From: Bacteroidota bacterium
Lineage (GTDB): Bacteria > Bacteroidota > Bacteroidia > Bacteroidales > VadinHA17
NCBI GenBank assembly: GCA_030596025.1
Contig: JAUVKW010000002.1
Location: 1-47,821, forward strand
Length of the DNA: 47,821 nt
Direction of reading: 5' to 3'
Shown here: one piece after another, positions 1,993 through 46,823 of the stretch
Position numbering within the stretch: the stretch's first letter is position 1
Layout of the letters: every line of letters starts with the position of its first letter
Notes under the pieces: generated by a model
What the model was told of the DNA's origin: nothing
The model's database searches: none
Seen by the model: the letters and a program-made list of their open reading frames with translations, nothing else
Made by a program: the position numbers and the translations under genes

Positions 1993-2149
1993 TGCAATGG
2001 ACAGTGAATTTCTTGAAGGTCCATTTTTGGCCTACATATTGAAATTTGCTAAAGTTATAAAAAGAATTGCCATATAACTTTTCCCATAATTGTTTATCAT
2101 TGTATGCAGAAACATGATGATATATTAGCCCACCCTTAAATGCAAGTGT

Positions 2150-9587: not shown

Positions 9588-10537
9588 ACAAACAATTGAG
9601 ATATTGTTTTAAGGTCTACATTTCCCCCTGTAACAATAATTCCAATTCTTTTTTCATGAATCTTTTCTCCATGTTGGAGGAGAATTGCAAGAGGAACAGC
9701 TGAGGATGGCTCTACAATAATTTTCATTCTGGTCCAAATTAATTTCATTGCTTCCACTATAGACTCCTCGCTGGCAGTAAATATTTCGTCAACATTATTT
9801 TGAATAATACTAAAAGTCAGAGGACTCATTGATGTAAGCAATCCGTCTGCTATAGTTTGCGGATTGACAGAAGGGATAAGTTTTTTCTGATAAAAAGAGC
9901 GAAATGCATCATCGGCACCTTCAGGTTCAGCCGCAATTACACTGCATGAGGGATGTAGTTCTTTGGCAACTATGCTCCCTCCACAAATCATCCCTCCCCC
10001 ACCTATTGGTGCAATTATACAATCCAGATCATCGTATTCTTCAAAAAGTTCCTTCACTGCAGTTCCCTGTCCGCAAATCACATTTCTATTATTGAAAGGA
10101 TGAATAAAAGTGGCTCCTGTTTTCTTCACTACCTCTTCCAACCCCGATTCACGTGCTTCAAGTGTTGGTTCGCAATATGTAATTTCAGCACCATAAAAGG
10201 CAACCGCATCCTTTTTTACCTGAGGGGCTGTGCGAGGCATTACAATATATGCAGGAATACCCTGTGTTTTTGCTGCCAGAGCAAGTGCAGCGGCATGATT
10301 TCCAGAAGAATGAGTAGCCACCCCTTTGCTAAGTTCACTATCATTAAGACACAATACAGCATTGGTAGCACCTCTAAATTTAAAAGCCCCGACTTTTTGA
10401 AAATTTTCACATTTAAAAAATAACTCCTTACCAAGTATGGAATTAATAGCCGATGAAGTAAGCACAGGTGTTCTGTGAACAAAGGGACTGATCCTCTTAT
10501 GGGCTGCCAGGATTTCCCGGTATTCAGGGATTTTCAT
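9584..10537 (-). CDS. PLP-dependent serine/threonine dehydratase (fold type II, serine racemase/TdcB-like)
   Basis: 317 aa. The PLP-lysine motif is FKFRGA, with SSGNHAAALA and the glycine loop GGGGMICG. Its 3' end overlaps the convergent EEP gene by 4 nt. Confidence 0.85.
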   Translation of the reverse strand: MKIPEYREILAAHKRISPFVHRTPVLTSSAINSILGKELFFKCENFQKVGAFKFRGATNAVLCLNDSELSKGVATHSSGNHAAALALAAKTQGIPAYIVMPRTAPQVKKDAVAFYGAEITYCEPTLEARESGLEEVVKKTGATFIHPFNNRNVICGQGTAVKELFEEYDDLDCIIAPIGGGGMICGGSIVAKELHPSCSVIAAEPEGADDAFRSFYQKKLIPSVNPQTIADGLLTSMSPLTFSIIQNNVDEIFTASEESIVEAMKLIWTRMKIIVEPSSAVPLAILLQHGEKIHEKRIGIIVTGGNVDLKTISQLFV

Positions 10538-10644
10538 TATGTGAATATTTTAATGTTAAATCTGCATTCGAGACAAGAACCTTGTTGATATAGTGACAAT
10601 TGTTCTTAAGATCAGCAATTCTTTTAATCGAATATCCAATTATT

Positions 10645-10709
10645 AGTCCCATAGGGACTTAATATTTATAGAGAAAATATGCATAAGAAATACAAGTCCC
10701 TTTAGGGAC
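10645..10709 (-). terminator. Two similar GTCCC-loop-GGGAC hairpins downstream of gene 10723-11493
   Basis: The hairpins are AGTCCC ata GGGACT (10645-10659) and GTCCC ttta GGGAC (10696-10709). On the minus strand the second one is followed by TTGTATTTCTT. Confidence 0.4.
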
Positions 10710-10722
10710 GATATATTATTGA

Positions 10723-11493
10723 TTATCTTTTGTTCCTCTTATAGGCCCAATATGAACCCTTCACCATGTAAAGGATATCATACTCGGAAGCATTCAAAAG
10801 GAATTCTTCACTTAAATGGCAATAATTCATAAAATCCTTCAGTTCCTGTCCCTGGAGTCCAGTAAGTTCCCCTACATTTTCTTCATTATATTTCGCTCTG
10901 ATAATTTTTTGCTTTAGCTGGTAGTCCAATATTTTCTGTAATTTAATCAGACTTTTTTCTTCTTTTGTTTTTATGGAAAAACTGAAACCTACATTAACCT
11001 TATCGTATTTAATAGCTTCCTCTCTGGTAATTTCCTGAATATATTCCAGGCTTTCTTCTGCAGGAGTTTTAGGGGGGATACTTGAAATGACTTTTCGTCT
11101 AAACTGAGCATAGTTTCCAAAACCTTCAACAGAGACGGGCTCAATCATATAAACTTTTTGACGCACCTGGATAATTCCCGAAAAATGATTGGAAGGCCAA
11201 AAACCGGGCAGGGAAAAATAACTTTCATTATAGCCCAATGCCGAAATAAACAAGGAGTCACATCGTCTCATCACAATTGTAAAAAACCCCAGTGTATCAC
11301 TTGTAGTTCCTATATTCAACCCAATGTTTAATATATGTGCATATACTATAGGTTTCCCTTCCCCGAGACTTTTTAACTGGCATTGAATGGTAACCAGGCT
11401 ATCGCCCGTATCTTCATTCTGACCGGAAAGAGTCAGTGAAAAAGAAAAAAAAACAAATCCGAAAAACAAACTTCTTTTTAGGAAATCCAACAT
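10723..11493 (-). CDS. Secreted hypothetical protein with a carboxypeptidase-regulatory-like N-domain
   Basis: 256 aa. A signal peptide is followed by a CarboxypepD_reg-like pattern (GKPIVYAHILNIGLNIGTTSDTLGFFTI...ISALGY). Confidence 0.5.
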   Translation of the reverse strand: MLDFLKRSLFFGFVFFSFSLTLSGQNEDTGDSLVTIQCQLKSLGEGKPIVYAHILNIGLNIGTTSDTLGFFTIVMRRCDSLFISALGYNESYFSLPGFWPSNHFSGIIQVRQKVYMIEPVSVEGFGNYAQFRRKVISSIPPKTPAEESLEYIQEITREEAIKYDKVNVGFSFSIKTKEEKSLIKLQKILDYQLKQKIIRAKYNEENVGELTGLQGQELKDFMNYCHLSEEFLLNASEYDILYMVKGSYWAYKRNKR

Positions 11494-14317: not shown

Positions 14318-15412
14318 TTAGTAGATTTCTTTCAATACCCCAAGTACATCATTGCTGTTTAAATCAACAATATTATTGCCCATTCTGTCTTTTGTAAAAG
14401 ATCGCTCTACAATATCTTCTAAATGGCCTTTGCTTACATTCCATTCTCTCAAATTAAACTTTACAATATTTCCAGGGATGGTGAGAATTATTTTCTCCAA
14501 TTCTGAAAGGCTGTTTATTCCTGTTTTACGAAAAAGCATTTCCAGTTGGGACTTAATTGCTTTTTCATTGATTTTAAGTAAGGGAATAACTGGCATCGAA
14601 CAGGCAATTCCATGAGGAATACCATAGGAAATTGTTAATGGGTAGCTAATTGAATGTGCTGCTGCTGTTTTGGTATTTGAGAATGCTAAACCAGCTAAAT
14701 TTGAGGCTTTTAGAAGATTGTTTCGTGTCTCAATACCATTGGGGTTCTTTTTTAACTTTATTACATTTTGAAAAATAATACTAATTGCTTCAATTGCATA
14801 ATTATTGGTTTTTTCACTGGCGTTTTTATTCCAAATCGCTTCGAAGCTATGGCTTAAAGCATCTAAAATGGTTGTAATCGATAATTCTAATGGCAAACTC
14901 AATGTTAGAGAGCCATCTAAGATTGCTACATCGGGATATAATTCAGGATATGAAATAGAATACTTTTTTTTATCTGTCATATCCCAAATAGTACTCCACA
15001 TAGTAACTTCACTTGCGGTACCATGTGTTGTAGGAATAAATATTGCCGGTATTCGATGTGGGAATGGAGATTTTAGGCTGAACAATTTCTTTAATCCATA
15101 AATCTCTGTTCCCATGGCAGCCATAACTGTTTTTGCAGTATCCATTACGGAGCCACCTCCTATTGCAATTACTCCATCATAGCTATTATTCCTGCTAAAG
15201 TCAATTGCAAGTTGACAGCTGGACAATGTGGGATTGTTCTCTATTTCACTGAATATGATTCTTTTATCAAACAGGTTTAATAAACCGATCCGTTTAATAT
15301 TTCCAAAAGATGTAATAACCAGCGGATTATAAATACTAAGTTCAGAGATAGATTTAGTTAAAGCTGTTTGCCAATTATCAGTTTCAATAACTTTAACAGG
15401 ATTATAATACAT
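14318..15412 (-). CDS. Iron-containing (group III) alcohol dehydrogenase. Predicted from context to be a phosphonoacetaldehyde reductase (PhpC/FomC-like).
   Basis: 364 aa. It has the GGGSVMDTAK nucleotide loop and His-rich metal motifs (LSHSFEAIW, AAHSISYP, PHGIAC). It lies 25 nt downstream of the phosphonopyruvate decarboxylase gene on the same strand. Confidence 0.7.
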   Translation of the reverse strand: MYYNPVKVIETDNWQTALTKSISELSIYNPLVITSFGNIKRIGLLNLFDKRIIFSEIENNPTLSSCQLAIDFSRNNSYDGVIAIGGGSVMDTAKTVMAAMGTEIYGLKKLFSLKSPFPHRIPAIFIPTTHGTASEVTMWSTIWDMTDKKKYSISYPELYPDVAILDGSLTLSLPLELSITTILDALSHSFEAIWNKNASEKTNNYAIEAISIIFQNVIKLKKNPNGIETRNNLLKASNLAGLAFSNTKTAAAHSISYPLTISYGIPHGIACSMPVIPLLKINEKAIKSQLEMLFRKTGINSLSELEKIILTIPGNIVKFNLREWNVSKGHLEDIVERSFTKDRMGNNIVDLNSNDVLGVLKEIY

Positions 15413-15437
15413 TTGGAATAGATCAGATAAAATACTA

Positions 15438-16568
15438 CTACTTTTTCAGAAATTCAATTAGATTGCTCTTGTTGTCTACCGGTTTAATAGTAGGCCTTCC
15501 CAAATCAGCCCTTGAGCCTGGCTTAAGTCTAATTTCCACCAGGCCGGGGCCACTTTTCTCAAGAAACCCGGCAATTTTGGCTGAAAGTTCATCGCTTGTT
15601 TCAACATTTAGAATAGTTTTATAATTCATGGACCTAAAAGTTCCCTGAACATCTATTGAATCAATAGATGTTTTTTGGCCACCCACCGATTCATGCACAT
15701 AATTATTCATTAGAATATGATAAAAGTTATCCGGCTGAGAGTTACCAATCGTTGCCAGGCTACCCATATGCATTAATAATGCACCATCTCCATCAATGCA
15801 TATCACTTTTCTTTTTGGCTGTGCCAGAGCTATACCCAGGGCTATTGAAGAACAATGTCCCATTGAGCCAACAGTTAAGAAATCTTTAAAATGCGGTTCT
15901 CCATTTTTTTCCCGTATTTCAAATATCTCACGTGAAGTTTTGCCAGTCGTAGAAACAATCACAGCATCATCCGGGATATTCTTTATTAGAATTTCCAATG
16001 CTTCTTCACGCATCATGAGATGATCATCAATTTTTTCAGAAGTGGAATTATAATCGTCAAAAGTTCCTTTTCTTATAACAATAGCATAAGGTTGATTCCC
16101 GGAGACAGATTTTTCAATCCCTTTTGTAACTTTTTGGGGCCAGTCAACATCATCAGGAGATAAAATACAATAGGGTATATTCATTGAGTTCAGCAAATCT
16201 AATTGTACTTTACCCTGTTTAATATGCTGTGGCTCATCTTTAACTCCAGGCTCTCCACGCCATCCAATTAGCAGAAGAATGGGAATTGAATACACTTCCG
16301 GGTCGGCAAGTGATAATAAAGGATTAATGGCATTGCCTAAACCTGAATTTTGCATATAAACTAATGATACTTTACCAGTACCAAGATGATAGCCTGTAGC
16401 TAAAGCAATAGCACTGCCTTCATTAACTGCAATAATATGCCGGTCATTTGACACATTATCATCAACACAAAGACAAAATTGTTTTAAAAGTGAATCTGGC
16501 ACACCTGTGAAAAAATCAATATTATTTTCAGCAAGTAGTTGAAAAAAATGTATTGGTTGAATGCTCAT
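15438..16568 (-). CDS. ppd: Phosphonopyruvate decarboxylase (ThDP-dependent; Ppd/AepY/Fom2-like)
   Basis: 376 aa. The ThDP motif is GDGALLMHMGSLATIGNSQPDNFYHILMNN (GDG-x-NN). Its start overlaps the stop of the upstream PEP mutase gene by 1 nt (TAATG on the minus strand at 16566-16570). Confidence 0.85.
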   Translation of the reverse strand: MSIQPIHFFQLLAENNIDFFTGVPDSLLKQFCLCVDDNVSNDRHIIAVNEGSAIALATGYHLGTGKVSLVYMQNSGLGNAINPLLSLADPEVYSIPILLLIGWRGEPGVKDEPQHIKQGKVQLDLLNSMNIPYCILSPDDVDWPQKVTKGIEKSVSGNQPYAIVIRKGTFDDYNSTSEKIDDHLMMREEALEILIKNIPDDAVIVSTTGKTSREIFEIREKNGEPHFKDFLTVGSMGHCSSIALGIALAQPKRKVICIDGDGALLMHMGSLATIGNSQPDNFYHILMNNYVHESVGGQKTSIDSIDVQGTFRSMNYKTILNVETSDELSAKIAGFLEKSGPGLVEIRLKPGSRADLGRPTIKPVDNKSNLIEFLKK

Positions 16569-17881
16569 TATTTATTTCCCGGAATAAGTGCTAATACCTC
16601 ATTAATTGAAATGCAATAATCATCAGATGCTTCTAAACCACGATCATGTTTTAATATAGATTCTGCTGTTTTGACCATAGCCGGGTAGGCACTTCTAACA
16701 AGATGGTTGCCATATATTACAATTTGAACTCCCAGTTTTTCAAAATCACTCACTGACATATGACTAAAAGTAGAGGGTACTACAACAAGTGGCACTTTTA
16801 TATCAAATTTTTGATAGGTCTTACAAAAATCAATAATTTCCTGTCCATCTTTCTTTTTACTATGAATCATAATTCCGTCAGCCCCAGCTGAAATATATGC
16901 TTTTGCTCTTTTCAGGGCATCATTCATGCCATTGTTTAATATCAAACTTTCGATACGGGCAAATATCATAAAATCATCTGTTATTAATGCATCTTTTCCT
17001 GCACGAATTTTTTCAGAAAAGTGTTCTATTGAATCCTGTTCCTGAAACACATCTGTACCAAATAATGAATTACGTTTAAGTCCAATTTTATCTTCAATAA
17101 TTACTGCAGAGACACCTAATCTTTCCATTGTGCGAACGTTAAATTGAAAATGTTCAATTTCCCCTCCTGTATCACCATCAATTATTATTGGTTTGGTGGT
17201 AACCTCAAGTATCTCTTCAACAGTTTGGAATCTGGAATAAAAATCAACAAGTTCAGTATCAGGCTTGCCTTTTGAAGTAGAGACTGTAAGGCTGCTTAAC
17301 CAGAGGGCATCAAATTCTCTAACCCCGCCGCTAACATATACTTTTGATTTTTCTACTATCAAACCGGTAATTCCATTATGGGCTTCCATTACACGCAAAG
17401 TGGGTCTTACACTTAACATTAATCGCAAAGATTTAAGACGCATATCGGGTGTTATCCCTCTTTTTTTTACTGCTTCAATTAATTGAGAGGATGAAATTCC
17501 TTTTGTGTATTTTGGCTCAATTAATTTACCATTCCACATTTTGAGGGCTTCAATAGCACGCTGACGTGTCTTTTTCTGAATACCCGTTTGCCAATCATCA
17601 CCATGTACCAGGAAATCTGGTCTTATTTTTTGCAGATTAGGAACATAATCCAATGACTTCTGTGGAACTACCTCATCAACACCTTTTAAACTCTCCACAA
17701 TGATTTTACGGTGATCATAGTCAGTATATGGAATGCGTTTATAGCTTGCAATGGCTTCATCTGTTAGTAAACCCACAATTACATAACCATATTTGCGTGC
17801 TTCGGCGATAATATTAAGATGACCTTCGTGAATAATGTCGGCCGCCATACCTACATATACTTTTTTTACTGCTTTGCTCAT
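16568..17881 (-). CDS. ppm: Bifunctional cytidylyltransferase / phosphoenolpyruvate mutase fusion (Fom1-like)
   Basis: 437 aa. The N-terminal ~140 aa is a HIGH-type cytidylyltransferase ([15 protein letters not shown] = HxGH, and later [10 protein letters not shown]). The C-terminal ~290 aa has the Ppm-diagnostic EDKxxxxxNS motif ([10 protein letters not shown]). Confidence 0.9.
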
Positions 17882-17966: not shown

Positions 17967-19178
17967 TTAAAATCCACGTTCTGCAATTGCACCATCATGC
18001 AGTTCGGCAATATAATTTTTATCCGGTACCCGCCAATTCCCATAACGTAAACTAAGATATTCTTCGGTATGTGCCGGAACCGGGATTTTACGTCCTTCCC
18101 ATACTATTTCATCCCTGGTATCGAAAAATTTTGCATCTACGTGTTTGAGAACACCGCTATCTATCCAGTGATATTTATCTTTTACCCTGTACACACAAAA
18201 TAAGTCAATATGAAAATTAACCTGTTGAAGTTTTTCCCAACTTGTCTTTATCTTAACAACCCTTGTATCGCCGCGAACCCAACATCGATTATATGTTTTA
18301 ACTTTCTTTTTCCGTATAATATAGCGTGGGAAAAATTTGAATTTTAAAGCTGCTGCCCTATCTGCATACTCAGCAGGAATGCTAATATCAGCATCATAAT
18401 CCCAGGGGATTAAATCCCCATCACGAACAATTCCAAGTAAAGTGCCGGCTTCAATCCAAAAGGGAATTTTATTTCTTTGAAGCTGATCAATAGTAAAAAG
18501 TAGCATTTCCTTCATTCTGGGAAGGTTATTACTATCTTGTAATTTAATCTTTTCTACAGGAATTTCCCCTTCTATTTTATTTTCAGGAATCGAATGAATT
18601 AAACTATCGTCTGCAAGAGCACCATCGTTAATCTGGGGCATCCAATTATCAGGTATTGATTGCCAGTCTCCATATCTATGATTTAAATAATCGTCAGTTT
18701 GTGATGGAATATTGTATGTGTTTCCGTCAAATTCTAACTTATCTAATTTATCAAAATACTTACTATTAATATGTTTACAATTTCGAATATCAACCCATCT
18801 AAATTCGTTTTTTTGCTTATACTTAACAGAAATAAACACTTTACTGCAAAAGTCTTTTGTTCCCCAACTATTTAATATGCTCAATGTAATAACTGAGCCA
18901 GGGAGCCACTTTCTGCGGGACATGTTTAGATAAGAATGAACACGATACAAAAACCCAAGTTTTTTTAGGGCATTCTGTAATACTACTAAATGCTGTTGAT
19001 CAACTGAAAGATAAACATCTTTCTCGCAACCTAGATCCATACCTTTTTTTTCACCCCAAACACCCAATAATGTATCAAAATCCAACCAAAACGGCACCTT
19101 ATTCTTATCAAGCAAATTGATCACATCCCTGAATAATTTTGTTTTTAGTTTCCGGTGAATATTTAATAGCTTAATCAT
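17967..19178 (-). CDS. LicD-family phospho(no)transferase with two tandem LicD-like domains (the N-terminal copy is degenerate)
   Basis: 403 aa. The C-terminal half has the LicD signature IPFWIEAGTLLGIVRDGDLIPWDYDADISIP. The N-terminal half repeats the scaffold (VPFWLDFDTLLGVWGE...; YLNHRYGDW versus YLSLRYGNW) but lacks the DxD. Confidence 0.75.
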   Translation of the reverse strand: MIKLLNIHRKLKTKLFRDVINLLDKNKVPFWLDFDTLLGVWGEKKGMDLGCEKDVYLSVDQQHLVVLQNALKKLGFLYRVHSYLNMSRRKWLPGSVITLSILNSWGTKDFCSKVFISVKYKQKNEFRWVDIRNCKHINSKYFDKLDKLEFDGNTYNIPSQTDDYLNHRYGDWQSIPDNWMPQINDGALADDSLIHSIPENKIEGEIPVEKIKLQDSNNLPRMKEMLLFTIDQLQRNKIPFWIEAGTLLGIVRDGDLIPWDYDADISIPAEYADRAAALKFKFFPRYIIRKKKVKTYNRCWVRGDTRVVKIKTSWEKLQQVNFHIDLFCVYRVKDKYHWIDSGVLKHVDAKFFDTRDEIVWEGRKIPVPAHTEEYLSLRYGNWRVPDKNYIAELHDGAIAERGF

Positions 19179-19390: not shown

Positions 19391-20548
19391 TCAGGCAGGT
19401 AGGATATGTTTATCGATAAACTCCCGAACAGCACCGGATCCTCCTTTCCGGTCCAGAATGATTATTTTGCTAATGCCCTTTATTACATCCACCGCATCAT
19501 TTGGACATGCTCTTAAACCAACTTTCTCCAAAAGTTCTAAATCATTAATGTCATCTCCTATATATGCAATATTATCTAAGCCAATATTTTCCTTTTCACA
19601 GATGTTCCTGACTTTCTCAAGTTTATTGTTTTTAGCTCCTTGTACCAAATAATCGATTTTTAGTTTTTTTGCCCTTCTCTCAACTATTCTTGTGTTTTCT
19701 GATGTTATAATGCCCGTTTTTATTCCCCTGTTGCGTAGCAACTCAATCCCCATTCCATCCCTTGTGTTAAATTTTTTCAATTCATCTCCCTGTTCAGAAT
19801 AGTACATACCGGCATCGGTAAGCACTCCATCCACATCAGTAAGGAATAACATTATTTTATCCGGTTTGTCCTGATATAAAACATATTTGTGCATTATTTT
19901 CTCTGCAACTATCCAATCTTCCTCCTCATCTATTTCCAATGCTGTATATTCAGGCATCTCATAAATAGCAATATTTCCTGACAGTCTGTTCTTATGTTCT
20001 CTTATATTATCAATAGTATTAATATAAAAAGCACCATTCTCAACCAGCTGTCCCTGGAACTGCTGCCTTCTTGGCCGGTTTCTATAATCATAATTTATTG
20101 GCTTGCCACTGAGATCCCAGAAAAACCGCTTTAGTCTTGAGCAGCTTAGAAGTGAATTTACTTTTTCATCCTTAAAAACATTTAGGGCTTCTTCAAAGTG
20201 ATGTTTTCTTGTAAAAGGAGAGGTTGCCTGTACCAGCATGAAAATATTATCATCACATAGTTTTACATGTTCAATATATTCCAACATAACACTTTCAGTA
20301 GATGCTGTGTCTGATGCATTCTTATCATCTCTATCATAGATTTCAAGCTTTGAAAAATTAAATCCTGAAATGGTTTCTTTTATTAAATCAGAATCTGTGG
20401 CTACAACAATTCTGTCAATATTTTCAGACCGGTTAAGTTCACTTGCAACCCAGTATAATAATGGCTTTCCACAAAGAATTTTTATGTTTTTCCCGGGTAT
20501 AGACTTACTACCTCCCCGGGCAGGAATAAAAGCTATTGTTTTAGTCAT
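19391..20548 (-). CDS. neuA: CMP-nonulosonate synthetase (NeuA-type cytidylyltransferase) fused to a C-terminal KdsC-like HAD phosphatase
   Basis: 385 aa. The N-terminus reads IAFIPARGGSKSIPGKNIK, the CMP-sugar synthetase P-loop. The C-terminal ~155 aa has HAD motif I (DVDGVLTD) and GDDINDLE. Its start overlaps the stop of the upstream NeuB-like gene by 8 nt. Confidence 0.85.
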   Translation of the reverse strand: MTKTIAFIPARGGSKSIPGKNIKILCGKPLLYWVASELNRSENIDRIVVATDSDLIKETISGFNFSKLEIYDRDDKNASDTASTESVMLEYIEHVKLCDDNIFMLVQATSPFTRKHHFEEALNVFKDEKVNSLLSCSRLKRFFWDLSGKPINYDYRNRPRRQQFQGQLVENGAFYINTIDNIREHKNRLSGNIAIYEMPEYTALEIDEEEDWIVAEKIMHKYVLYQDKPDKIMLFLTDVDGVLTDAGMYYSEQGDELKKFNTRDGMGIELLRNRGIKTGIITSENTRIVERRAKKLKIDYLVQGAKNNKLEKVRNICEKENIGLDNIAYIGDDINDLELLEKVGLRACPNDAVDVIKGISKIIILDRKGGSGAVREFIDKHILPA

Positions 20549-21416
20549 TCTTCCGATATTTTAGTTTTTCCCTTTGTGCCTGTTCAATATTTAAAATCTC
20601 CTTATCCTTATAATTCAATGCCTTATGTGTTGCCTTAAGGTCTCTCGCCAATTTCCTAATTCCTTCAGGCTCTAACGAGGCTGCATGATCAGTTCCTTTC
20701 CATGTACGATCAAGGGTATAATGTCTCTCAATATACTCCGCTCCCAGTGTATATGCAGCAACATCAACAGCAATTCCAAGGTGATGGCCACTAAACCCTA
20801 TTGCTTTTACTTTAGACTCATACTTCTTTCTTAAGTTCAAAATCTCAAGAAGTGCTACATCTTCAAAAGGGACCGGATAACCAGAAGTACAAGCATATAT
20901 AACCACATCCTTTGTCCTGTTAAATCTGTCAAAAAGCTGTAATATGCCATCAATTTCATCCCTGGTTGTCATACCTGTTGATACATGAATTTCCCCATTG
21001 TAGTTTTTAGCCAACCATTCCATCATTTCTACATTATTATTACAGGCAGAAGGTATTTTTATCAATTTTGGATTCAATGAGCCTATCTCCTTTGCAGATG
21101 TAAGCTCCCATACCGAGCTTGAATATTCGATTCCAAAACCTTCACAGCATTTTTTTAACTCTGCATGCTGTTTCACATTAAATTCCAAATACTCACGATG
21201 GGCCCCATAGGAACCCCCATATGAGTTTATTGGATTTGGGTGGGGCGCATTGTATTGTTCTTCAGTAAGTAAGTCTTTATTGTTTCTTTTCTGAAATTTT
21301 ACAACATCAGCATTCCCGTACAGCTTTGCCACTTTGACAAGTTCTTTGGCTATATCAAGATCTCCCTTGTGGTTGCAACCAATCTCAGCGATTATTTTTG
21401 GATGATTATAATTCAT
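20541..21416 (-). CDS. neuB: NeuB-family nonulosonate (sialic acid/KDN 9-phosphate-type) synthase, short form without the C-terminal SAF domain
   Basis: 291 aa. It has IIAEIGCNHKGDLDIAKELV, KFQK and HYTLDR, typical of the NeuB TIM barrel. The ORF ends about 50 aa short of canonical NeuB, so there is no SAF/antifreeze-like domain. Confidence 0.85.
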   Translation of the reverse strand: MNYNHPKIIAEIGCNHKGDLDIAKELVKVAKLYGNADVVKFQKRNNKDLLTEEQYNAPHPNPINSYGGSYGAHREYLEFNVKQHAELKKCCEGFGIEYSSSVWELTSAKEIGSLNPKLIKIPSACNNNVEMMEWLAKNYNGEIHVSTGMTTRDEIDGILQLFDRFNRTKDVVIYACTSGYPVPFEDVALLEILNLRKKYESKVKAIGFSGHHLGIAVDVAAYTLGAEYIERHYTLDRTWKGTDHAASLEPEGIRKLARDLKATHKALNYKDKEILNIEQAQREKLKYRKND

Positions 21417-21711
21417 TTCTCTGTTTTTTCGGTTTTACCAAATTCAATCTTAAGTATTTAATATCGTAAAACAATAACTTAAACGGGATTAATCACAATA
21501 ACCTGATACATACTTTAAGTTAAATAATTTTCAACTCTAAAATATAATAATTCAACAATCAACAACAATGATAATGATTTTAGACAAAATATGTCTAAAT
21601 GTCACATTACAATCCATTAATTTGATTTTAATATCCAATTTGAATTCTAAACATATAAAGGATATATTCGCATTCTGGTTTGTGGGAAAACAAATTAGAG
21701 GAGGAAAGATT

Positions 21712-22731
21712 ATGGCTAATAAAGTATATGTATGTGGTACATTATACCATCTTTATGTTAGTAGTTTAAAAAATGTGGAGCCAGGCAACCAGGGGATTAA
21801 ATCATTGCTTATTGTGAATGACCACACCCCTAACCTATCTTCAATGGCTAAAAAGCTTGTTGAAAATAATTTTTTTTCTGACTATTTATATATCCCCTTC
21901 TATGAGATCAAAAGTAATCTGAAACTGGATACAGGGCTTATCAAAAGGAGTCTTTTCAGGAACAGAAATTTGATAAAATATGTTGAAGATAATTCTGATA
22001 TAAGAAAACAATTTGACTTCATCGGGGACTCAGAAATTAACTTGTTTTACAACCGTGGGATAAATTCTTTTTACTTCCTTACAAGGTTTAAGAAAAATAC
22101 CTTCATCCAACTCGAGAGTGGTATAGCCAATTATACTCCAATGGTTAGTATTCTTAAAGCCTTTAAGCGCAGATTCATACTGAAAACACCTCAGGGTGAT
22201 GGCAGGGACAAGCAAATAAAAAAAATTGAAGTGAAGTTTCCTGAAAATCTCCCCCCGGAGACAAGAAAAAAAGGGGTGAAACTTGATTTGCAGGACATAA
22301 TCGAATCTTTGGAAAATAGCAGAAAACAAGAACTACTAAATATATTTTCCCAGGGGCATAGTTTTTCATTAAATAACAATAAAAAACTTATCCTGATTAC
22401 CCAGCCCTTATCTGAAGATAAATTCATTACAGAGGATTACAAGATCTCTCTCTACAATAAGATCCTAAATGAATATGCTTCAGACTTTGAGGTGTATCTA
22501 AAGCCCCATCCAAGGGAGATAACCGAATACAAGGACAAATTTGATATTGATATAAATGAGCTTCCCCGAAACTTTCCACTTGAAATATTGAATTTTTCTA
22601 CCGAGATCGTATTTGATAAAGGGATAACTATTTTTTCCGGGGCCCTGAATAATCTTGAAAATATCGGGGAACGTATCTTTCTGGGTCAGGATTATGATAA
22701 GAAGCTGATCCAGAGAAAAAGGATAATTTAA
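21712..22731 (+). CDS. Putative GT52-like (Lst-type) sialyl/nonulosonyl transferase
   Basis: It carries YLKPHPRE (the HP motif of bacterial sialyltransferases), IFSGAL shortly after, LILITQPLSED, and an ESG at the position of the D/E-D/E-G motif. The order matches what I recall of Neisseria Lst. I chose the ATG at 21712, preceded by AGAGGAGGAAAG, over the ATG at 21568. Confidence 0.55.
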   Translation: MANKVYVCGTLYHLYVSSLKNVEPGNQGIKSLLIVNDHTPNLSSMAKKLVENNFFSDYLYIPFYEIKSNLKLDTGLIKRSLFRNRNLIKYVEDNSDIRKQFDFIGDSEINLFYNRGINSFYFLTRFKKNTFIQLESGIANYTPMVSILKAFKRRFILKTPQGDGRDKQIKKIEVKFPENLPPETRKKGVKLDLQDIIESLENSRKQELLNIFSQGHSFSLNNNKKLILITQPLSEDKFITEDYKISLYNKILNEYASDFEVYLKPHPREITEYKDKFDIDINELPRNFPLEILNFSTEIVFDKGITIFSGALNNLENIGERIFLGQDYDKKLIQRKRII

Positions 22732-23028
22732 GCTAATTTTGCTGCTGATACTTCAGAGGGAGCAGAAGATTTATTAATTATTATTAGAGAAAAAAATACA
22801 GCATTATTGAAGTAAAATATTGATCATTTGTCTTTATAAAAACATCCAGCATAACATATTTTTTCCTGAAATAGGAATGAAAAAACTTTAATATTACAGT
22901 TTTTGAAAAATCCTTTACAAATGCTGAAAATATGATTCCGACAGATGACTGGATAAAAATCTTACAAAATTAAACCTGATTCCCAATATATTTGGATAAT
23001 TTTACCCAATTGTCTTTAAAAAAATGAA

Positions 23029-23796
23029 ATGCCGAAGATTTCCGCAGTTATCATTAGTTATAATGAAGAAAAATATATAGGAAGGTGCCTTGAATCTCTA
23101 CAACAAGTAGCTGATGAAATTGTAGTTGTGGATTCCTATTCTCAAGATAAAACCAGAGAAATTTGTAAGACCTACAAGGTGAGATTTATAGAACATGAAT
23201 TTGAAGGCTATAGGCAACAGAAGAATTGGGCTATGGCCCAGGCCGAAAATGATATAGTACTTTCACTGGATGCTGATGAATGTCTGTCAGAAGAACTGAA
23301 AAATTCTATACAAAATGTAAAAAGCAGTTGGGAGGCGGATGCTTATTCTTTTAACCGCCTTAATAATTATTATGGGAAATGGATCAAACATTCAGGGGTT
23401 TATCCGGACAGGAAAATAAGATTATTTGACAGAAGAAAGGGAAAATGGGGTGGTGTTAACCCACATGATAAGTTCATAGTAAATCCTGGGGAGAAATATA
23501 AGTTTTTAACCGGAGATCTTCTACATTATGTCCAGGACTCAATTGATGATCATGTTGACAAGATCAGGTTGTTTTCCGGAATCAATGCCGGGGAATACTA
23601 TAAAATGGGGAAAAATTCTTCCTTTCTAAAGATTCTTGTTCATCCTTCATGGAGATTTTTTAAATCGTATTTTTTTAATATGGGGTTTTTAGATGGCTAT
23701 TATGGCTTTGTTATATGTTCCTTAAATGCCTATTCAAGTTTTTTGAAACATGTTAAAATCAGAAAGCTAAATATGAAAAGTAAGGATAAATCATAA
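23029..23796 (+). CDS. Glycosyltransferase family 2 (WaaE/KdtX-like)
   Basis: 255 aa. It has ISAVIISYNEE, VVVDSYSQD and a DxD (LDADE), typical of a GT-A fold GT2. Confidence 0.85.
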   Translation: MPKISAVIISYNEEKYIGRCLESLQQVADEIVVVDSYSQDKTREICKTYKVRFIEHEFEGYRQQKNWAMAQAENDIVLSLDADECLSEELKNSIQNVKSSWEADAYSFNRLNNYYGKWIKHSGVYPDRKIRLFDRRKGKWGGVNPHDKFIVNPGEKYKFLTGDLLHYVQDSIDDHVDKIRLFSGINAGEYYKMGKNSSFLKILVHPSWRFFKSYFFNMGFLDGYYGFVICSLNAYSSFLKHVKIRKLNMKSKDKS

Positions 23797-23822
23797 TGTC
23801 AAAATAATAAAATACATCTATT

Positions 23823-24512
23823 ATGAAGATAATAATACTTGCTGCCGGCATTGGTTCAAGACTGGGAAATCCTTTCCCAAAACCATTAACTCCCCTAAAA
23901 AATGGCAAAACCATAATGCAACAACAGGTAGAAAAACTAACTTCTTACTTTTCTCTTGATGATATATCAGTAATCATCGGGTTTAAAAAGGACCTGATCA
24001 TGGAAAGCTTCCCTGATCTTAGTTATATCTATAACCAATCCTTCGATCGTACAAACACATCAAAAAGCCTGCTAAAAGGTCTTAAGAAATATCCAAAATC
24101 TTCTATCTTATGGTTAAATGGAGATGTAGTATTTGACGAGAAGATATTGGAATATATATTACCCTATATTGCTCAGGATGCTTCATTTGTAGCAGTAAAT
24201 AATTCTGAGGTTGGAGATGAAGAAGTAAAGTACACTCTGGATAAGGATAAATATATTAACCTGATATCTAAAGAAGTGAAAAATGGCCTTGGAGAGGCTG
24301 TAGGCATAAATTATATTGCTAACAAAGACCTGTCTTCGTTTACAGGCAGATTAGAGGAATGTAAAGACATGGATTATTTTGAAAAAGGTCTTGAGCTGGC
24401 AATACAGAATGATCATATAAAAGTAAAAGCTGTAGATATCTCTGAATTTAATTGTGTGGAAGTTGATTTTGAAGAAGACCTGGAAAATGCAAATAGATTA
24501 TTTATTAAATAA
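23823..24512 (+). CDS. LicC/PntC-like nucleotidyl(cytidylyl)transferase
   Basis: 229 aa. The N-terminal signature is IILAAGIGSRLG..PKPL. Overall colinearity with LicC extends to the C-terminal VEVDFEEDLENA segment. Confidence 0.75.
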   Translation: MKIIILAAGIGSRLGNPFPKPLTPLKNGKTIMQQQVEKLTSYFSLDDISVIIGFKKDLIMESFPDLSYIYNQSFDRTNTSKSLLKGLKKYPKSSILWLNGDVVFDEKILEYILPYIAQDASFVAVNNSEVGDEEVKYTLDKDKYINLISKEVKNGLGEAVGINYIANKDLSSFTGRLEECKDMDYFEKGLELAIQNDHIKVKAVDISEFNCVEVDFEEDLENANRLFIK

Positions 24513-24514
24513 TT

Positions 24515-25558
24515 ATGAAGGCCATTCTATTTTGTGAGCTGCCTTACTCTTATGAAATATTATATCCCCTTTACAAAGCAGGTTTAAAAAGGGGCTACAA
24601 ACAGTTATGGTTTATCCCGGAAGCTGTTAAATCTCAACTCAAGCTGGACCCGGATCTAGAGATGACCTCCAGCATGAAGAATCTGGATGATTTTCAAAGC
24701 GATGCAATCCTGGTGCCAACCAATTCTATTCCACATTATCTCAGGGGTGTTAAGGTTCAGATATTTCATGGCTTTGCAGGAGAAAAAAAAGGCCACTTCA
24801 GAATAAGACATTATTTTGATCTGTACCTTACCCAGGGGCCTTATTTTACCAGGCAATTTAAGGCATTTGCAAAAAGGCATAAGAATTTCCATGTCGTGGA
24901 AACCGGCTGGTCAAAACCAGATCTTTATTATCAGGAACAATTATCCTTTCAACAAAAGAAAAAGGAAATCCTGGCTAATAACAGGGTCAAAACAATTGTT
25001 CTTTATGCCCCAACTTTCTCTCCTTCTTTATGCTCTGCCAAAGACCTGCTTCCTGAACTAATTTCACTGGCAAAGAGTGAACCAATTTATATGTTTATTA
25101 AGTTTCATGATAAAATGGCTCCTAAAACTATTCATGAATACAAACAAAGTTTTGACGGAATTGAGAACGTTGAAATTATGAACCAGAAAGATATCATCCA
25201 GGTCTTGAATATTAGTGATTATTTAATCTCAGATACCTCTTCCGTAGTTTATGAATTTATATTATTGAATAAACCGGCACTTACCTATAGATCCGGATCT
25301 AAAAATATTAACTGGCTTAATATTCGCAACTCTCAACAATTAATTCCTTCCTTCAAAAATATGGTAATAAATGACGAGTATGTATTAAAAAGGAAAAATA
25401 TAATTGCAGAATATCACCCATATACCGATGGAAAATCATCGGAAAGAATGTGGGATGCTATTGAAAAATATATATCGGAACAGGGTGTTCCTAAAAAAAG
25501 ACCATTGTCTTTTTACAGAAAACAAAAAGTTTATTCTCTTCACGGAAAATTAAGTTAA
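24515..25558 (+). CDS. CDP-alcohol phosphotransferase of the TagB/TagF (CDP-glycerol glycerophosphotransferase) family
   Basis: 347 aa. It has VLYAPTFSPS, IKFHDKM (at the position of the family His motif) and SDYLISDTSSVVYEFILLNKP. It starts 2 nt after the upstream nucleotidyltransferase stop. Confidence 0.75.
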   Translation: MKAILFCELPYSYEILYPLYKAGLKRGYKQLWFIPEAVKSQLKLDPDLEMTSSMKNLDDFQSDAILVPTNSIPHYLRGVKVQIFHGFAGEKKGHFRIRHYFDLYLTQGPYFTRQFKAFAKRHKNFHVVETGWSKPDLYYQEQLSFQQKKKEILANNRVKTIVLYAPTFSPSLCSAKDLLPELISLAKSEPIYMFIKFHDKMAPKTIHEYKQSFDGIENVEIMNQKDIIQVLNISDYLISDTSSVVYEFILLNKPALTYRSGSKNINWLNIRNSQQLIPSFKNMVINDEYVLKRKNIIAEYHPYTDGKSSERMWDAIEKYISEQGVPKKRPLSFYRKQKVYSLHGKLS

Positions 25559-27472: not shown

Positions 27473-28321
27473 TTACTTTGCTTTTTCCTCATTACCTGCT
27501 TCAGGCTCCTTTGCTTCTTCCTTTTTAGGTTCTTCCTTCACTTCCTCAACGGGAATTTCTTTTTTTTCTGCTTTTACTTTTTTTTCCTGAACAGCTTCTA
27601 CCGGAGCAGCTTTCTTTTCTTCAGCTTTTTCATCTGTTGAAGTTTTTACTTCTTCTACCTTTTCTTCTGTCTTGGCTTCTGCCGGAACAGCTTCTTCAGC
27701 TTTCACCTCTTCTACCTTTTCTTGTGCCTTGGTTTCTGCAGGAACAGCTTCTTCAGCTTTTACCTCTTCTACCTTCTTTGCAACATCACCTTCAGTTTCA
27801 GCAACAGCTTCTTTTCCTTCACTTGCTTTTTCTGATGCCGCTTTTACAGCTTCTTCAGCAAGTTCAGAATTTCTTAATGCAATTTCTTCAGCACGTTTCT
27901 CCTTAACTTTTGATTCTGCTTCAAGTCTTTTCTTAGTTTCATCAGCAGCAGCTTTACTCAAGCCATCTTTCTTGGTTTGAATCTTATCTTCTTTTTCTTT
28001 CATCCAGGACTGAAAACGCTTTTCAGCTTCCTCTTCAGAAAAAGCACCTTTTCTTACACCATTCAGCAAATGGTTCTTGTACATAACTCCCCTGTAAGAA
28101 AGTATATCCCTACAGGTATCTGATGGTTGAGCACCTTTTTGTAGCCAGTTCAAAGCACTATCAAAATTTAATTCGATAGTAGCAGGATTTGTATTTGGAT
28201 CATAACTCCCAACCCTTTCAATGAACTTGCCATCCCGTGGCGCCCTGCTATCAGTAATAACAATGTGATAGAAAGGTTTTTTCTTTCTACCTTGTCTTGA
28301 TAATCTGATTTTTACTGGCAT
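27473..28321 (-). CDS. rpsP: 30S ribosomal protein S16 with a long repetitive Lys/Glu/Ala-rich C-terminal extension
   Basis: The N-terminus is [42 protein letters not shown]. About 190 further aa are low-complexity and include [17 protein letters not shown] repeats. Confidence 0.95.
27647..27781 (-). repeat. 57-nt in-frame tandem repeat (2.4 copies) inside the rpsP 3' extension
   Basis: Copies at 27647-27703 and 27704-27760 differ at only a few positions. A partial third copy lies at 27761-27781. Each unit encodes 19 aa ([15 protein letters not shown][T/A]K..). Confidence 0.85.
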
Positions 28322-35357: not shown

Positions 35358-35368
35358 TAAAGCTTGTT

Positions 35369-44939: not shown

Positions 44940-44955
44940 AAAATTAATCGATAAG

Positions 44956-46526: not shown

Positions 46527-46823
46527 TTACTTCAGGATAATCTTCTTCGTATTTATGCCTTTCTTGTCCTTAATCCATACAAAATAGAGACCAGGTAATT
46601 GCTGATCCAAATTGATTTCTGTTATATCTTTAGTAGAATACCCCTGGTAAATACGTTTACCACTGGCATTGAATATGGAAATATAAAACGGACTGAATGC
46701 TTGAATATTCAGAAAGCCTTCAGACGGATTTGGATATACAAGCACGTTCCCCTCTCCTTTTGTAACCAGACTACCGGAAGAAGTCGTATTTTCAGGAAAG
46801 GTATTTGAGAGGGCTTCATACAT
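46527..46823 (-). CDS. Stand-alone T9SS C-terminal sorting domain. Most likely the detached 3' part of the upstream cargo gene.
   Basis: 98-aa ORF. VYPNPSEGFLNIQ...GLYFVWIKD...KKIILK is a canonical Por secretion tail. There is no signal peptide. It is in the same frame as ORF 46887-47783. Confidence 0.6.
   Translation of the reverse strand: MYEALSNTFPENTTSSGSLVTKGEGNVLVYPNPSEGFLNIQAFSPFYISIFNASGKRIYQGYSTKDITEINLDQQLPGLYFVWIKDKKGINTKKIILK

Follow-up and report, generated by a model that had tools for sequence, protein, structure and literature searches.

A predicted CMP-2-hydroxyethylphosphonate pathway within a glycan gene region of a Bacteroidota genome

Three adjacent genes in the window (the whole 47.8-kb stretch of a marine-type Bacteroidota chromosome analysed here, which is also the portion of the genome covered by our searches) encode a cytidylyltransferase–PEP mutase (Ppm) fusion protein, a phosphonopyruvate decarboxylase (Ppd) and an iron-type alcohol dehydrogenase (ADH). 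They are predicted to make CMP-2-hydroxyethylphosphonate (CMP-HEP), which would then be used as donor for the decoration of a surface glycan, a reading to which we assign a probability of about 0.65. A role of CMP-HEP as glycan-decorating donor had been proposed in the first-pass annotation of this DNA and is supported by homology and comparative context; adjacency to a LicD-family gene, together with genes for the synthesis of sialic-acid-like Kdn, for glycosyltransferases and for a TagF-like protein that had gone unmentioned, lends further support to the glycan use. The pathway is of a kind already catalogued and is not an antibiotic cluster.

Table 1. Features of the phosphonate trio and the surrounding glycan genes (positions in the window).
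Feature	Position	Strand	Basis
Cytidylyltransferase–PEP mutase fusion gene	16568-17881	minus	ORF, 437 aa
N-terminal HIGH-type cytidylyltransferase domain, aa 1-145	17447..17881	minus	PF01467, E 3e-15
PEP mutase domain, aa 150-437 + stop codon	16568..17434	minus	TIGR02320
Phosphonopyruvate decarboxylase gene (Ppd/Fom2-like)	15438-16568	minus	TIGR03297 profile match
Fe-type alcohol dehydrogenase gene (ADH)	14318-15412	minus	PF00465 + PF25137
Two-domain LicD-family phosphotransferase, 403 aa	17967..19178	minus	PF04991, two matched stretches
CMP-nonulosonate synthetase (N-terminal) + Kdn-9-phosphate phosphatase (C-terminal) fusion	19391..20548	minus	PF02348 + HAD domains
NeuB-family nonulosonate synthase	20541..21416	minus	PF03102, E 3.6e-65
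GT52 / polysialyltransferase-like glycosyltransferase	21568..22731	plus	PF07922 E 5.7e-20, PF07388 E 9.9e-13
GT2 glycosyltransferase	23029..23796	plus	PF00535, E 3.8e-21
MobA/LicC-fold nucleotidyltransferase	23823..24512	plus	PF12804, E 2e-15
TagF-like CDP-alcohol:glycan phosphotransferase (Glyphos_transf)	24515..25558	plus	PF04464, E 1.4e-18

Predicted route from PEP to CMP-HEP

The coordinates first given for the trio, 14318-17881, correspond exactly to its three ORFs, whose matches, at E-values between 1e-32 and 1e-140, are far beyond chance. Earlier statements on their layout held up as well: the ten-residue motif diagnostic of Ppm lies at aa 263-272 (nt 17066-17095), a HIGH-type cytidylyltransferase is fused to its N-terminus (PF01467, aa 8-140), and direct reading of the sequence finds the Ppm stop overlapping the Ppd start (TAATG, 16566-16570), through which the decarboxylase is predicted to be translationally coupled to the fusion gene.

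The C-terminal mutase domain of the fusion protein scores 390.5 bits on TIGR02320 (cut-off 319.55; profile positions 1-283 of 284), matches the PEP mutases in PDB 1M1B and 5UNC (E about 1e-40) and would carry out the first step, from PEP to phosphonopyruvate. Its unfavourable equilibrium would be drawn forward by the coupled decarboxylase, yielding phosphonoacetaldehyde in a second step; Ppd reaches 465.5 bits on TIGR03297 (cut-off 312.5; profile positions 1-360 of 360) and contains the thiamine-diphosphate motif GDG-x25-NN at aa 260-289. Both Ppm and Ppd exceed curated equivalog cut-offs.

The third gene encodes an Fe-ADH and not an aminotransferase, as was initially stated and as full-length matches to PF00465 and PF25137 bear out. 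We predict a group III Fe/Zn alcohol dehydrogenase of the PhpC/FomC type that would convert phosphonoacetaldehyde to HEP (step three). Its best NCBIfam model is TIGR03405 (Phn_Fe-ADH; 241 bits, next model 161 bits), with a score that falls short of the curated cut-off of 423.7 bits. Residues D184, H188, H253, H267, K150, T249, Y257 and R343 are present and correspond to PhpC residues described in PMC13576164; among them His188, Tyr257, Thr249, Lys150 and Arg343 are counterparts of reported metal- and HEP-binding residues. The residues described as diagnostic of PhpC-type phosphonoacetaldehyde reductases are in place. Among solved structures, sulfoacetaldehyde reductase 6JKO comes nearest; the same enzyme served, as entry 6JKP, for comparison with the PhpC model (PMC13576164), and SarD has Gln and Phe in place of His188 and Tyr257, respectively. 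Phylogenetic placement favours this assignment: in a neighbour-joining tree of Ppm-linked ADHs and generic Fe-ADHs, the enzyme sits inside the Ppm-linked clade, separate from generic Fe-ADHs with His at position 257.

In the fourth step, the N-terminal domain would convert HEP and CTP to CMP-HEP. It carries the motifs HEGH (aa 18-21) and YTKGISSS (aa 125-132) and is 60% identical (80/133 residues; 179 bits, E 1.6e-51) to the CyTase domain of Streptomyces Fom1 (PDB 5X3D), which was shown to produce CMP-HEP (PMC6697681, PMC9088020), with far weaker matches to ethanolamine-phosphate (67 bits) and glycerol-3-phosphate cytidylyltransferases (52 bits). We predict it to be a Fom1-CyTase-like CTP:2-hydroxyethylphosphonate cytidylyltransferase, although HEP specificity is not proven by the PF01467 fold alone, since PF01467–Ppm fusions are found also in the AEP-transaminase gene-cluster family GCF 743 (PMC8942020). 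The whole route from PEP to CMP-HEP is predicted from orthology to characterised enzymes.

Glycan genes and conserved gene order

Directly upstream of the fusion gene lies the gene for a LicD-family protein, a candidate for the transfer of the HEP-phosphonyl group from CMP-HEP onto a glycan hydroxyl. Its C-terminal half contains GTLLGI...WDYDAD (aa 245-264), its N-terminal half DTLLGV at aa 35 without the acidic motif, and it matches the PDB structure of the CDP-ribitol transferase FKRP (E 4.5e-08). Orthologs occupy the same position in L001, L002, L005 and L085 (64-95% identity), the last of which is the locus of the window as found in a second assembly, with the same fusion–Ppd–ADH order, and in L007 and L014 (45-51%); L086 and L087 likewise have a LicD gene of matching size ahead of the fusion gene.

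The minus-strand operon begins with the gene for the NeuB-family synthase, whose product is probably Kdn-9-phosphate; the protein has no C-terminal SAF domain and scores 205 bits on TIGR03569, under the cut-off. The next gene, overlapping by 8 nt, encodes the synthetase–phosphatase fusion, of which aa 233-380 score 180.7 bits on the KDN-9-P phosphatase model NF058599, slightly over its cut-off of 180. Divergently transcribed is the gene of the GT52-like protein, a candidate Kdn transferase with 95% identity in L085. The MobA/LicC-fold nucleotidyltransferase would provide a second activating enzyme in the locus; its PDB matches, to glucose-1-phosphate and inositol-1-phosphate cytidylyltransferases, are weak, and LicC and PntC are not among them. 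The TagF-like protein matches PDB structures of TarL and Cps3D and is a candidate for an alternative or additional user of CMP-HEP; its orthologs (34-38% identity, 180-218 bits) directly follow the ADH gene in L001, L002, L005-L012, L086 and L087, and such genes adjoin the trio in most Neomarinimicrobiota-type loci. The trio of L091 has Wzx, Wzy and TagF-like genes on its flanks. Genes for a flippase, a polymerase or an initiating transferase were not found in the window locus.

CMP-HEP would serve as a CDP-alcohol-like donor, from which the LicD-family enzyme, and possibly also the TagF-like enzyme of the divergent operon, would move the hydroxyethylphosphonyl group onto a sugar hydroxyl, so that a surface glycan would carry a phosphonate ester. 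Gene adjacency and the analogy with LicD, FKRP and TagF chemistry suggest this transfer step. The decorated glycan probably contains Kdn, since the operon would make CMP-Kdn and a GT52-like transferase is encoded with it; this is the weakest part of the scheme.

ADH homologs of at least 41% identity directly follow fusion and Ppd genes in 15 species-representative loci, and the same order occurs in two more metagenome contigs. The labels of the MAGs concerned cover at least five phyla (Neomarinimicrobiota, Cloacimonadota, Dehalococcoidia, Acidobacteriota and Chrysiogenia), while several loci are labelled just "uncultured bacterium". An Fe-ADH gene also adjoins Ppm in L088, L089 and L091, which were chosen from the cytidylyltransferase side by similarity to the Fom1 CyTase and show no aminotransferase; in L089, Ppd lies two genes upstream. 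A class-V aminotransferase was likewise absent among the best 25 of 77 Pfam families matched by 50 trio-flanking ORFs of 13 related loci, where a strong match should have surfaced because these 25 reached as far as single-member families at E 5.6e-26. Cassettes with 64-89% identity to the four-gene LicD–fusion–Ppd–ADH unit occur in unlabelled MAGs, in loci that have another organisation and resemble those of Neomarinimicrobiota-labelled MAGs. The unit appears to behave as a portable cassette, here inserted into a Bacteroidota glycan locus.

Alternative outputs

A phosphonolipid output, in which CMP-HEP would be joined to diacylglycerol or another lipid alcohol by a CDP-alcohol phosphatidyltransferase whose gene would lie beyond the window, we regard as unlikely. 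In other phyla, lipid output is suggested by a CDP-alcohol phosphatidyltransferase (in three loci with an LPG_synthase_TM-like protein) after the trio. The CDP-OH_P_transf gene comes right after ADH in L018 and L040, after two TagF-like genes in L001, L002, L005 and L086, and near the trio in L017 and L089. Three of the 50 flanking ORFs match LPG_synthase_TM, probably the shared 320-342 aa ORF adjoining the trio in L016, L018 and L040, and large groups of CDP-OH phosphonolipid clusters have been described (PMC8942020). In the 47.8-kb window, however, Pfam scans found no CDP-alcohol phosphatidyltransferase, and the trio shares its operon with LicD, Kdn synthesis genes and glycosyltransferases, in an arrangement kept exactly in L085.

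It is also improbable that the ADH acts on some other phosphorylated aldehyde or ketone that feeds the NTP_transf_3 and TagF-like pair, with a phosphonate derived from AEP or phosphonoacetaldehyde via a transaminase elsewhere; phnW may lie beyond the 47.8 kb. Besides the score under the TIGR03405 cut-off, this would be favoured by 58%-identical ADHs in L003/L004 and the P0059 locus, which have no Ppm or Ppd within 10 kb but do have nucleotidyltransferases, TagF-like proteins and CDP-OH transferases. The ADH is thus not strictly dependent on a neighbouring C-P synthase, and these loci could represent phosphonoacetaldehyde salvage or another ADH substrate there. Yet the fusion–Ppd–ADH order is kept in MAGs labelled with five phyla, the PhpC-type Tyr257, Arg343 and His188 are present, and the L003 ADH nests within the Ppm-linked clade, which suggests a recent loss of neighbours and not a different family. 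Salvage of AEP to HEP by phnW and phpC has, moreover, already been proposed for pepM-less genomes (PMC9381506).

HEP might also be a mere intermediate, turned by a methylphosphonate synthase or HEP dioxygenase encoded elsewhere into surface methylphosphonate or hydroxymethylphosphonate, as in Nitrosopumilus. The Ppm-Ppd-Pdh-MpnS route is known from marine microbes (PMC8931226, PMC9381506), and mpnS or hepD may lie beyond the 47.8 kb; we nevertheless think this very unlikely, given a Ppm-fused cytidylyltransferase 60% identical to an enzyme acting on HEP itself and the absence of a cupin-type oxygenase both from Pfam scans of the window and beside the trio in the Pfam-annotated L001, L002, L085, L086 and L087.

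A diffusible, antibiotic-like phosphonate with tailoring genes elsewhere is least credible: fosfomycin biosynthesis opens with the same three enzyme types (PMC9088020) and the related marine locus P0115 combines fusion and ADH with three B12-radical-SAM enzymes, but P0115 too has Wzx, Wzy and glycosyltransferases and is thus glycan-directed, and the trio of the window sits between LicD and Kdn genes and housekeeping genes. The first-pass claim that tailoring genes are missing stands: Pfam scans of the substantial non-nested and several short ORFs of the window found no radical-SAM/B12 enzyme, cupin epoxidase, DUF402 or class-V aminotransferase, nor any FomD-type hydrolase, ATP-grasp, NRPS or resistance-kinase gene in the 47.8 kb.

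Comparison with known systems

The fusion protein has the architecture of Streptomyces Fom1, an N-terminal PF01467 cytidylyltransferase (60% identical) followed by a PEP mutase, and a TPP-dependent phosphonopyruvate decarboxylase and group III Fe-ADH complete the HEP/CMP-HEP route as do Fom2 and FomC. Unlike the fosfomycin pathway of that actinomycete, the window of our Bacteroidota host lacks Fom3 (B12-radical-SAM methyltransferase), Fom4 (epoxidase), FomD (CMP hydrolase) and the FomA/B kinases, and whereas cytidylylation is transient in fosfomycin synthesis, CMP-HEP is here predicted as the final donor used by a transferase.

The logic is shared with the PntC/LicD AEP clusters of Atopobium rimae, Olsenella uli and Treponema denticola (Rice et al., 2019; PMC6697681), in which Ppm (often nucleotidyltransferase-fused) and Ppd lead to a CMP-phosphonate used by LicD-like phosphotransferases or by glycosyltransferases for surface decoration. 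Those clusters, however, employ an AEP transaminase and a PF12804 (LicC-fold) cytidylyltransferase to produce CMP-AEP, whereas the Fe-ADH and PF01467 (HIGH-fold) domain of the window lead us to expect CMP-HEP.

The trio also resembles the ppm neighbourhoods of the PhpC (HEP) branch, with Ppm, Ppd, a PhpC-like Fe-ADH and no AEP transaminase, which make up 8.5% of those surveyed in complete RefSeq genomes (Li and Horsman, 2022; PMC8942020). Members include the HEP-exopolysaccharide cluster of Stackebrandtia nassauensis and the methylphosphonate cluster of Nitrosopumilus, which differs from the window in the addition of MpnS; from the exopolysaccharide of one member a HEP conjugate was isolated (PMC8942020). 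The LicD–fusion–Ppd–ADH cassette, the link to Kdn genes and Bacteroidota/Marinimicrobia hosts do not feature in that survey. Novelty is modest: earlier publications cover fusions of PF01467 with Ppm, the HEP branch and glycans bearing HEP (PMC6697681, PMC8942020), and annotation pipelines already label homologs "phosphonoacetaldehyde reductase" and [quoted passage not shown].

The ADH has its Fe/Zn-ADH fold and its residues for metal and substrate (numbered H195, Y264, K157 and R349 in Paraburkholderia fungorum) in common with catabolic HEP dehydrogenases of the PhpC type (Piazza et al., 2026; PMC13576164). Their genes lie beside phnX or phnY-phnA and the enzymes work in the oxidative direction, whereas the ADH gene of the window follows Ppm and Ppd in a biosynthetic operon with no C-P hydrolase nearby.

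Finally, the transfer of a CMP-linked alcohol-phosph(on)ate onto a glycan hydroxyl by a LicD-family enzyme has its counterparts in the Lic phosphocholine pathway (LicC and LicD) and in FKRP/fukutin (CDP-ribitol). Unlike the Lic pathway, the predicted route would require neither a kinase (LicA) nor a transporter (LicB), since the C-P compound arises already "phosphorylated", and a phosphonate ester would result instead of the phosphodiester of Lic and FKRP.

The fusion protein and the alcohol dehydrogenase

The region from 14318 to 17881 holds exactly three consecutive ORFs on the minus strand, encoding a phosphoenolpyruvate (PEP) mutase with an N-terminal cytidylyltransferase (CT) domain (CT-Ppm), a phosphonopyruvate decarboxylase (Ppd) and an iron-type alcohol dehydrogenase (ADH). 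[quoted passage not shown] The first-pass annotation, made from the sequence alone, had pointed to this diagnostic motif as well as to a HIGH-type cytidylyltransferase at the N-terminus, and the latter is borne out by a PF01467 domain ahead of the mutase domain with the motifs HEGH (aa 18-21) and YTKGISSS (aa 125-132), which fit the patterns HxGH and (R/Y)TxGIS(T/S). Fusions of PF01467 to Ppm account for 23.6% of Ppm proteins (PMC6697681). The reported overlap of the Ppm stop and the Ppd start (TAATG) could also be read in the sequence, and Ppd contains the thiamine-diphosphate motif GDG-x25-NN at aa 260-289.

Genes of the phosphonate cassette and the adjoining nonulosonate genes, with the basis for their assignment
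Feature	Position	Strand	Basis
Fe-type ADH, complete	14318-15412	-	PF00465 and PF25137
Ppd (Fom2/AepY type)	15438-16568	-	TIGR03297, 465.5 bits (cut-off 312.5)
CT-Ppm fusion	16568-17881	-	437 aa; PF01467 at aa 15-136, then PEP_mutase at aa 160-410
LicD-family protein	17967-19178	-	403 aa, two domains; PF04991, 77 bits, two stretches
CMP-nonulosonate synthetase + Kdn-9-phosphate phosphatase fusion	19391-20548	-	NF058599, 180.7 bits (cut-off 180)
NeuB-type synthase	20541-21416	-	without SAF domain

When the fusion protein is compared with the entire PDB, entry 5X3D ranks first, the isolated cytidylyltransferase domain of Fom1 from Streptomyces wedmorensis (179 bits, E 1.6e-51, 80/133 residues or 60% identical), followed by weaker matches of the CT domain to the cytidylyltransferases for ethanolamine-phosphate (ECT, 67 bits), glycerol-3-phosphate (TagD, 52 bits) and choline-phosphate (CCT, 24 bits). 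The Fom1 domain has been demonstrated to convert CTP and 2-hydroxyethylphosphonate (HEP) to CMP-HEP (PMC6697681, PMC9088020), and the JGI pipeline labels homologs [quoted passage not shown]. Since the similarity of the window CT to Fom1 is close to that to its equivalents in MAGs labelled Cloacimonadota, Acidobacteriota or Dehalococcoidia (62-66% identity), the domain is unusually conserved. These comparisons support its prediction as a Fom1-type HEP cytidylyltransferase, and the 60% identity suggests an evolutionary link to Fom1; the "transient cytidylylation" of fosfomycin may have been derived from a widespread surface-tailoring module. When the protein collection was searched with the Fom1 CyTase sequence, Fom1 was not among the matches, most of which were partial sequences on long-read contigs with frameshifts.

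The third gene had been read as an Fe-ADH and not as the transaminase expected for 2-aminoethylphosphonate (AEP), and the domain assignment over its full length agrees. The best NCBIfam model is TIGR03405, an Fe-ADH of phosphonate clusters, with 241.4 bits (next model 161), a score that does not reach the curated cut-off of 423.7. The ADH family is broad, since trio-linked ADHs of other lineages (L036, L050 and L088) share only ~28-38% identity with the window enzyme. A literature search for "PsrA", the current NCBIfam name of TIGR03405, returned nothing; homologs with 55-71% identity are named "phosphonoacetaldehyde reductase" by NCBI. The nearest solved structure is the sulfoacetaldehyde reductase SarD (6JKO/6JKP), and it was against the sulfoacetaldehyde reductase structure that Piazza et al. 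checked their model of PhpC, with Asp191, His195, His260 and His274 as metal ligands and Lys157, Thr256, Tyr264 and Arg349 as HEP-binding residues, Tyr264 being Phe in sulfoacetaldehyde reductase (PMC13576164). The window ADH has the Asp-His-His-His metal site as D184, H188, H253 and H267 and the counterparts of the substrate pocket as K150, T249, Y257 and R343, matched to the P. fungorum numbering by a nearly constant offset (7; 6 for the arginine) and not by direct alignment. Aligned to SarD (6JKO), Tyr257 lies opposite Phe and His188 opposite Gln. Across 84 ADH homologs, T249, Y257 and R343 occur in every Ppm-linked enzyme and are replaced in generic Fe-ADHs, e.g., by His257.

In a neighbour-joining tree labelled by gene context, which does not include the FomC, PhpC and DhpG sequences themselves, the window ADH is nested in the Ppm-linked clade and generic Fe-ADHs form a separate cluster, a placement in line with the first-pass reading. 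Next to the Ppm-linked clade lie enzymes from SAR11, Sphingomonas, Bacillus and Planctomycetota with the T/Y/R signature and no Ppm neighbours, whose hosts overlap those reported for catabolic PhpC.

Conservation of the gene trio and its exceptions

A scan based on the ADH alignment, with one genome per species, yielded 80 loci onto which homologs of the window proteins were mapped. On informative contigs, ADH homologs with at least 41% identity lie directly behind CT-Ppm and Ppd, with the exception of L003/L004 and the P0059 locus. The order fusion-Ppd-ADH was found in 15 species-representative loci (L001, L002, L005, L007-L010, L012-L018 and L040) and again on three contigs retrieved via the protein index (L085-L087); the taxon labels comprise Neomarinimicrobiota, Cloacimonadota, Dehalococcoidia, Acidobacteriota and Chrysiogenia, and several loci are labelled only "uncultured bacterium". 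Approached from the side of the Fom1 CT, the comparison covers three informative loci (L088, L089 and L091; L090 was left out as too fragmented), and all three have an Fe-ADH beside Ppm. One of them, L089, contains two copies of CT-Ppm.

The exceptions bear on the substrate of the ADH. Neither Ppm nor Ppd is present within 10 kb of the ADH in L003 (ADH at 10001-11095), L004 and the P0059 locus, and it is mainly on these loci that we keep the rival explanation that the ADH acts on a substrate other than phosphonoacetaldehyde. Their ADH is 58% identical to that of the window and retains the PhpC signature residues, and the L003 enzyme falls inside the Ppm-linked clade of the tree. In their position on the chromosome they agree with the L001-type loci, with LicC-fold nucleotidyltransferases where the fused CT is missing, together with TagF-like and CDP-alcohol transferases; L003 additionally encodes an inositol-1-phosphate synthase and the P0059 locus a short LicD. 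In the simplest reading, the C-P synthase was displaced at these loci and the aldehyde is supplied otherwise. A salvage of AEP through phnW and phpC has been proposed by Lockwood et al. (PMC9381506). A role of the window ADH as glycerol or propanediol dehydrogenase can be dismissed, as the respective NCBIfam models score 20-39 bits vs 241 for the phosphonate model.

Glycan neighbourhood, host and predicted product

Upstream of CT-Ppm, the same operon encodes the LicD-family protein, the CMP-nonulosonate synthetase fusion and the NeuB-type synthase, and divergent genes at 21568-25558 encode a GT52/polysialyltransferase-like protein, a GT2, a PF12804 nucleotidyltransferase (23823-24512, for which no close solved relative was found in the PDB) and, next to it, a TagF-like transferase (24515-25558). 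A predicted complete Kdn route (19391-22731), made up of the NeuB-type synthase, the synthetase-phosphatase fusion and the divergent GT52/polysialyltransferase-like gene, shares the operon or promoter region with the phosphonate genes. The C-terminal domain of LicD contains GTLLGI...WDYDAD, with WDYDAD (aa 259-264) providing the acidic D-x-D motif; its N-terminal domain is degenerate and lacks the acidic motif, and FKRP is the PDB match of the protein. The whole arrangement is not an assembly accident, because an ENA metagenome contig (L085, sample ERZ23498500) repeats the same eleven genes and their flanks with 89-98% protein identity. No flippase, polymerase or priming transferase was found at the window locus, which therefore would modify a glycan assembled elsewhere. 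Housekeeping genes separate the phosphonate genes from a class-I methyltransferase and a pyruvyl transferase for polysaccharides some 11 kb away (979-3325), which may represent a separate glycan-modification function.

At an unrelated marine locus (P0115, JGI 3300072015), a NeuB and a CMP-sugar synthetase also lie beside CT-Ppm and ADH. Ppd is not visible there, and the neighbours include a 2-hydroxyacid dehydrogenase, three B12-binding radical-SAM enzymes of the Fom3 class, a sulfatase/phosphodiesterase-type transferase, methyltransferases, Wzx and Wzy; the product may be a glycan bearing methylated HEP derivatives.

The affiliation of the contig is reflected by MutL, whose best labelled relatives are from Bacteroidales, Prolixibacteraceae and other Bacteroidetes (56-61% identity), by a SusC-like TonB-dependent receptor and SusD-like lipoprotein pair (41778-46491) and by proteins with type IX secretion system (T9SS) tails, including a 1055-aa beta-helix/PMP-repeat protein with a T9SS C-terminal sorting domain (38000-41167) and a separate 98-aa ORF with little beyond the Por_Secre_tail domain (46527-46823). 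Together these point to a Bacteroidota host, which the SusC/SusD pair supports jointly with the sigma-54 two-component system (33990-36901). A Marinimicrobia host, to which the closest labelled ADH homologs would point, was rejected in view of MutL, SusC/SusD and the T9SS cargo. Ribosomal protein S16 (27473-28321) has a ~200-aa C-terminal extension rich in Lys, Glu and Ala with a 57-bp tandem repeat (27644-27775, 2.3 copies, 90% match).

The cassette of LicD, CT-Ppm, Ppd and ADH recurs in L001, L002 and L005, unlabelled MAGs with loci of Neomarinimicrobiota type, at 64-70%, 85-87%, 72-77% and 69-77% identity, respectively, but in loci organised differently from that of the window, flanked by an ABC exporter on one side and by two TagF-like genes and a CDP-alcohol phosphatidyltransferase on the other; ADHs from labelled Marinimicrobia reach 71% identity. 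From these similarities we infer that the cassette was shared laterally. No tRNA or mobile-element genes were found at its borders, the GC content of the locus (32-37%, flanks 36-41%) gives no clear island boundary, and a scan for promoters and terminators returned counts equal to those of shuffled sequence.

Judged by orthology at each of the four steps, the mutase domain would convert PEP to phosphonopyruvate, coupled to the decarboxylase that would yield phosphonoacetaldehyde, the ADH would reduce the aldehyde to HEP and the N-terminal CT domain would activate HEP to CMP-HEP. Chemically, CMP-HEP is a CDP-alcohol analogue, and LicD, FKRP and TagF-type enzymes move the alcohol-phosphate part of CDP-alcohol donors onto hydroxyls. 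A transferase, for which gene adjacency offers the candidate as well as the acceptor, would thus put HEP on a glycan as a phosphonate ester, sugar-O-P(O)(O-)-CH2CH2OH. The first-pass view of CMP-HEP as donor for glycan decoration is supported by homology and context as a predicted function. HEP esters of this kind have been reported in marine polysaccharides (as cited in PMC9381506).

In almost every locus of Neomarinimicrobiota type, an ortholog of the TagF-like transferase (34-38% identity) comes directly behind the ADH; in some of these loci the Ppm-fused CT is the sole activating enzyme, so that CMP-HEP might also be the donor of the TagF-like enzymes. In other lineages CMP-HEP probably also feeds lipid head-groups: a CDP-alcohol phosphatidyltransferase is found behind or near the trio in loci labelled Acidobacteriota, Chrysiogenia and Dehalococcoidia, and among the loci outside the FCB group this holds for L016, L018, L040 and also L017 and L089. 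In L016, L018 and L040 an ORF of 320-342 aa beside the trio is probably the LPG_synthase_TM-like membrane protein, which suggests a HEP-containing phospholipid at trio loci outside the FCB group. HEP carries a free hydroxyl of its own, and the trio is accompanied by LicD-type as well as TagF-type CDP-alcohol transferases, which are the sole users in sight at the L001-type loci, where no activating enzyme other than the fused CT is seen. CMP-HEP may for these reasons be a chain-forming unit and not a terminal cap. We regard it as unlikely that TagF- and LicD-type enzymes use HEP in this way and that the cassettes are then a major marine source of HEP esters; if true, one would expect either an oligo- or poly-(hydroxyethylphosphonate), a "polyphosphonate" resembling teichoic acid, or a Kdn-containing glycan with HEP bridges.

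Comparison with known phosphonate systems

Unlike the AEP pathway (Ppm-Ppd-AEPT), the window has no class-V aminotransferase (PF00266, PhnW/AEPT) according to Pfam scans of its substantial non-nested ORFs and several short ones. This family was likewise not among the best 25 of 77 Pfam families in 50 trio-flanking ORFs from 13 loci, a ranking in which single-member families appeared down to E 5.6e-26, so that a strong aminotransferase match should have shown. The same scans of the window agree with the earlier statement that tailoring genes are lacking, as they returned no radical-SAM/B12 protein, cupin epoxidase or DUF402 hydrolase; in contrast to the fosfomycin cluster, the families of Fom3, Fom4/HppE, FomD and the FomA/B kinases are all missing from the scanned ORFs.

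PhpC-type neighbourhoods make up 8.5% of the surveyed ppm loci, and for one of them a HEP-exopolysaccharide has been isolated (PMC8942020). How phosphonates, once cytidylylated, become attached to the cell surface continues to be called enigmatic (PMC6697681), and in the literature searched we found no description of a transfer of CMP-HEP to a glycan. The organisms behind the marine phosphonate material that feeds aerobic methane production are not well known (PMC9381506, PMC8931226). The window locus, with its predicted function, leaves the known categories unchanged. It adds to them a quantitative link to Fom1, a check of the PhpC residues, the conservation of the trio across phyla, a portable cassette containing LicD, the association with Kdn genes and alternative glycan and lipid outputs, the trio being paired with glycan-type or lipid-type transferases in MAGs whose labels span five or more phyla. 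The four-gene cassette beside the Kdn genes offers a small, testable system for CMP-HEP-dependent phosphonylation of glycans.
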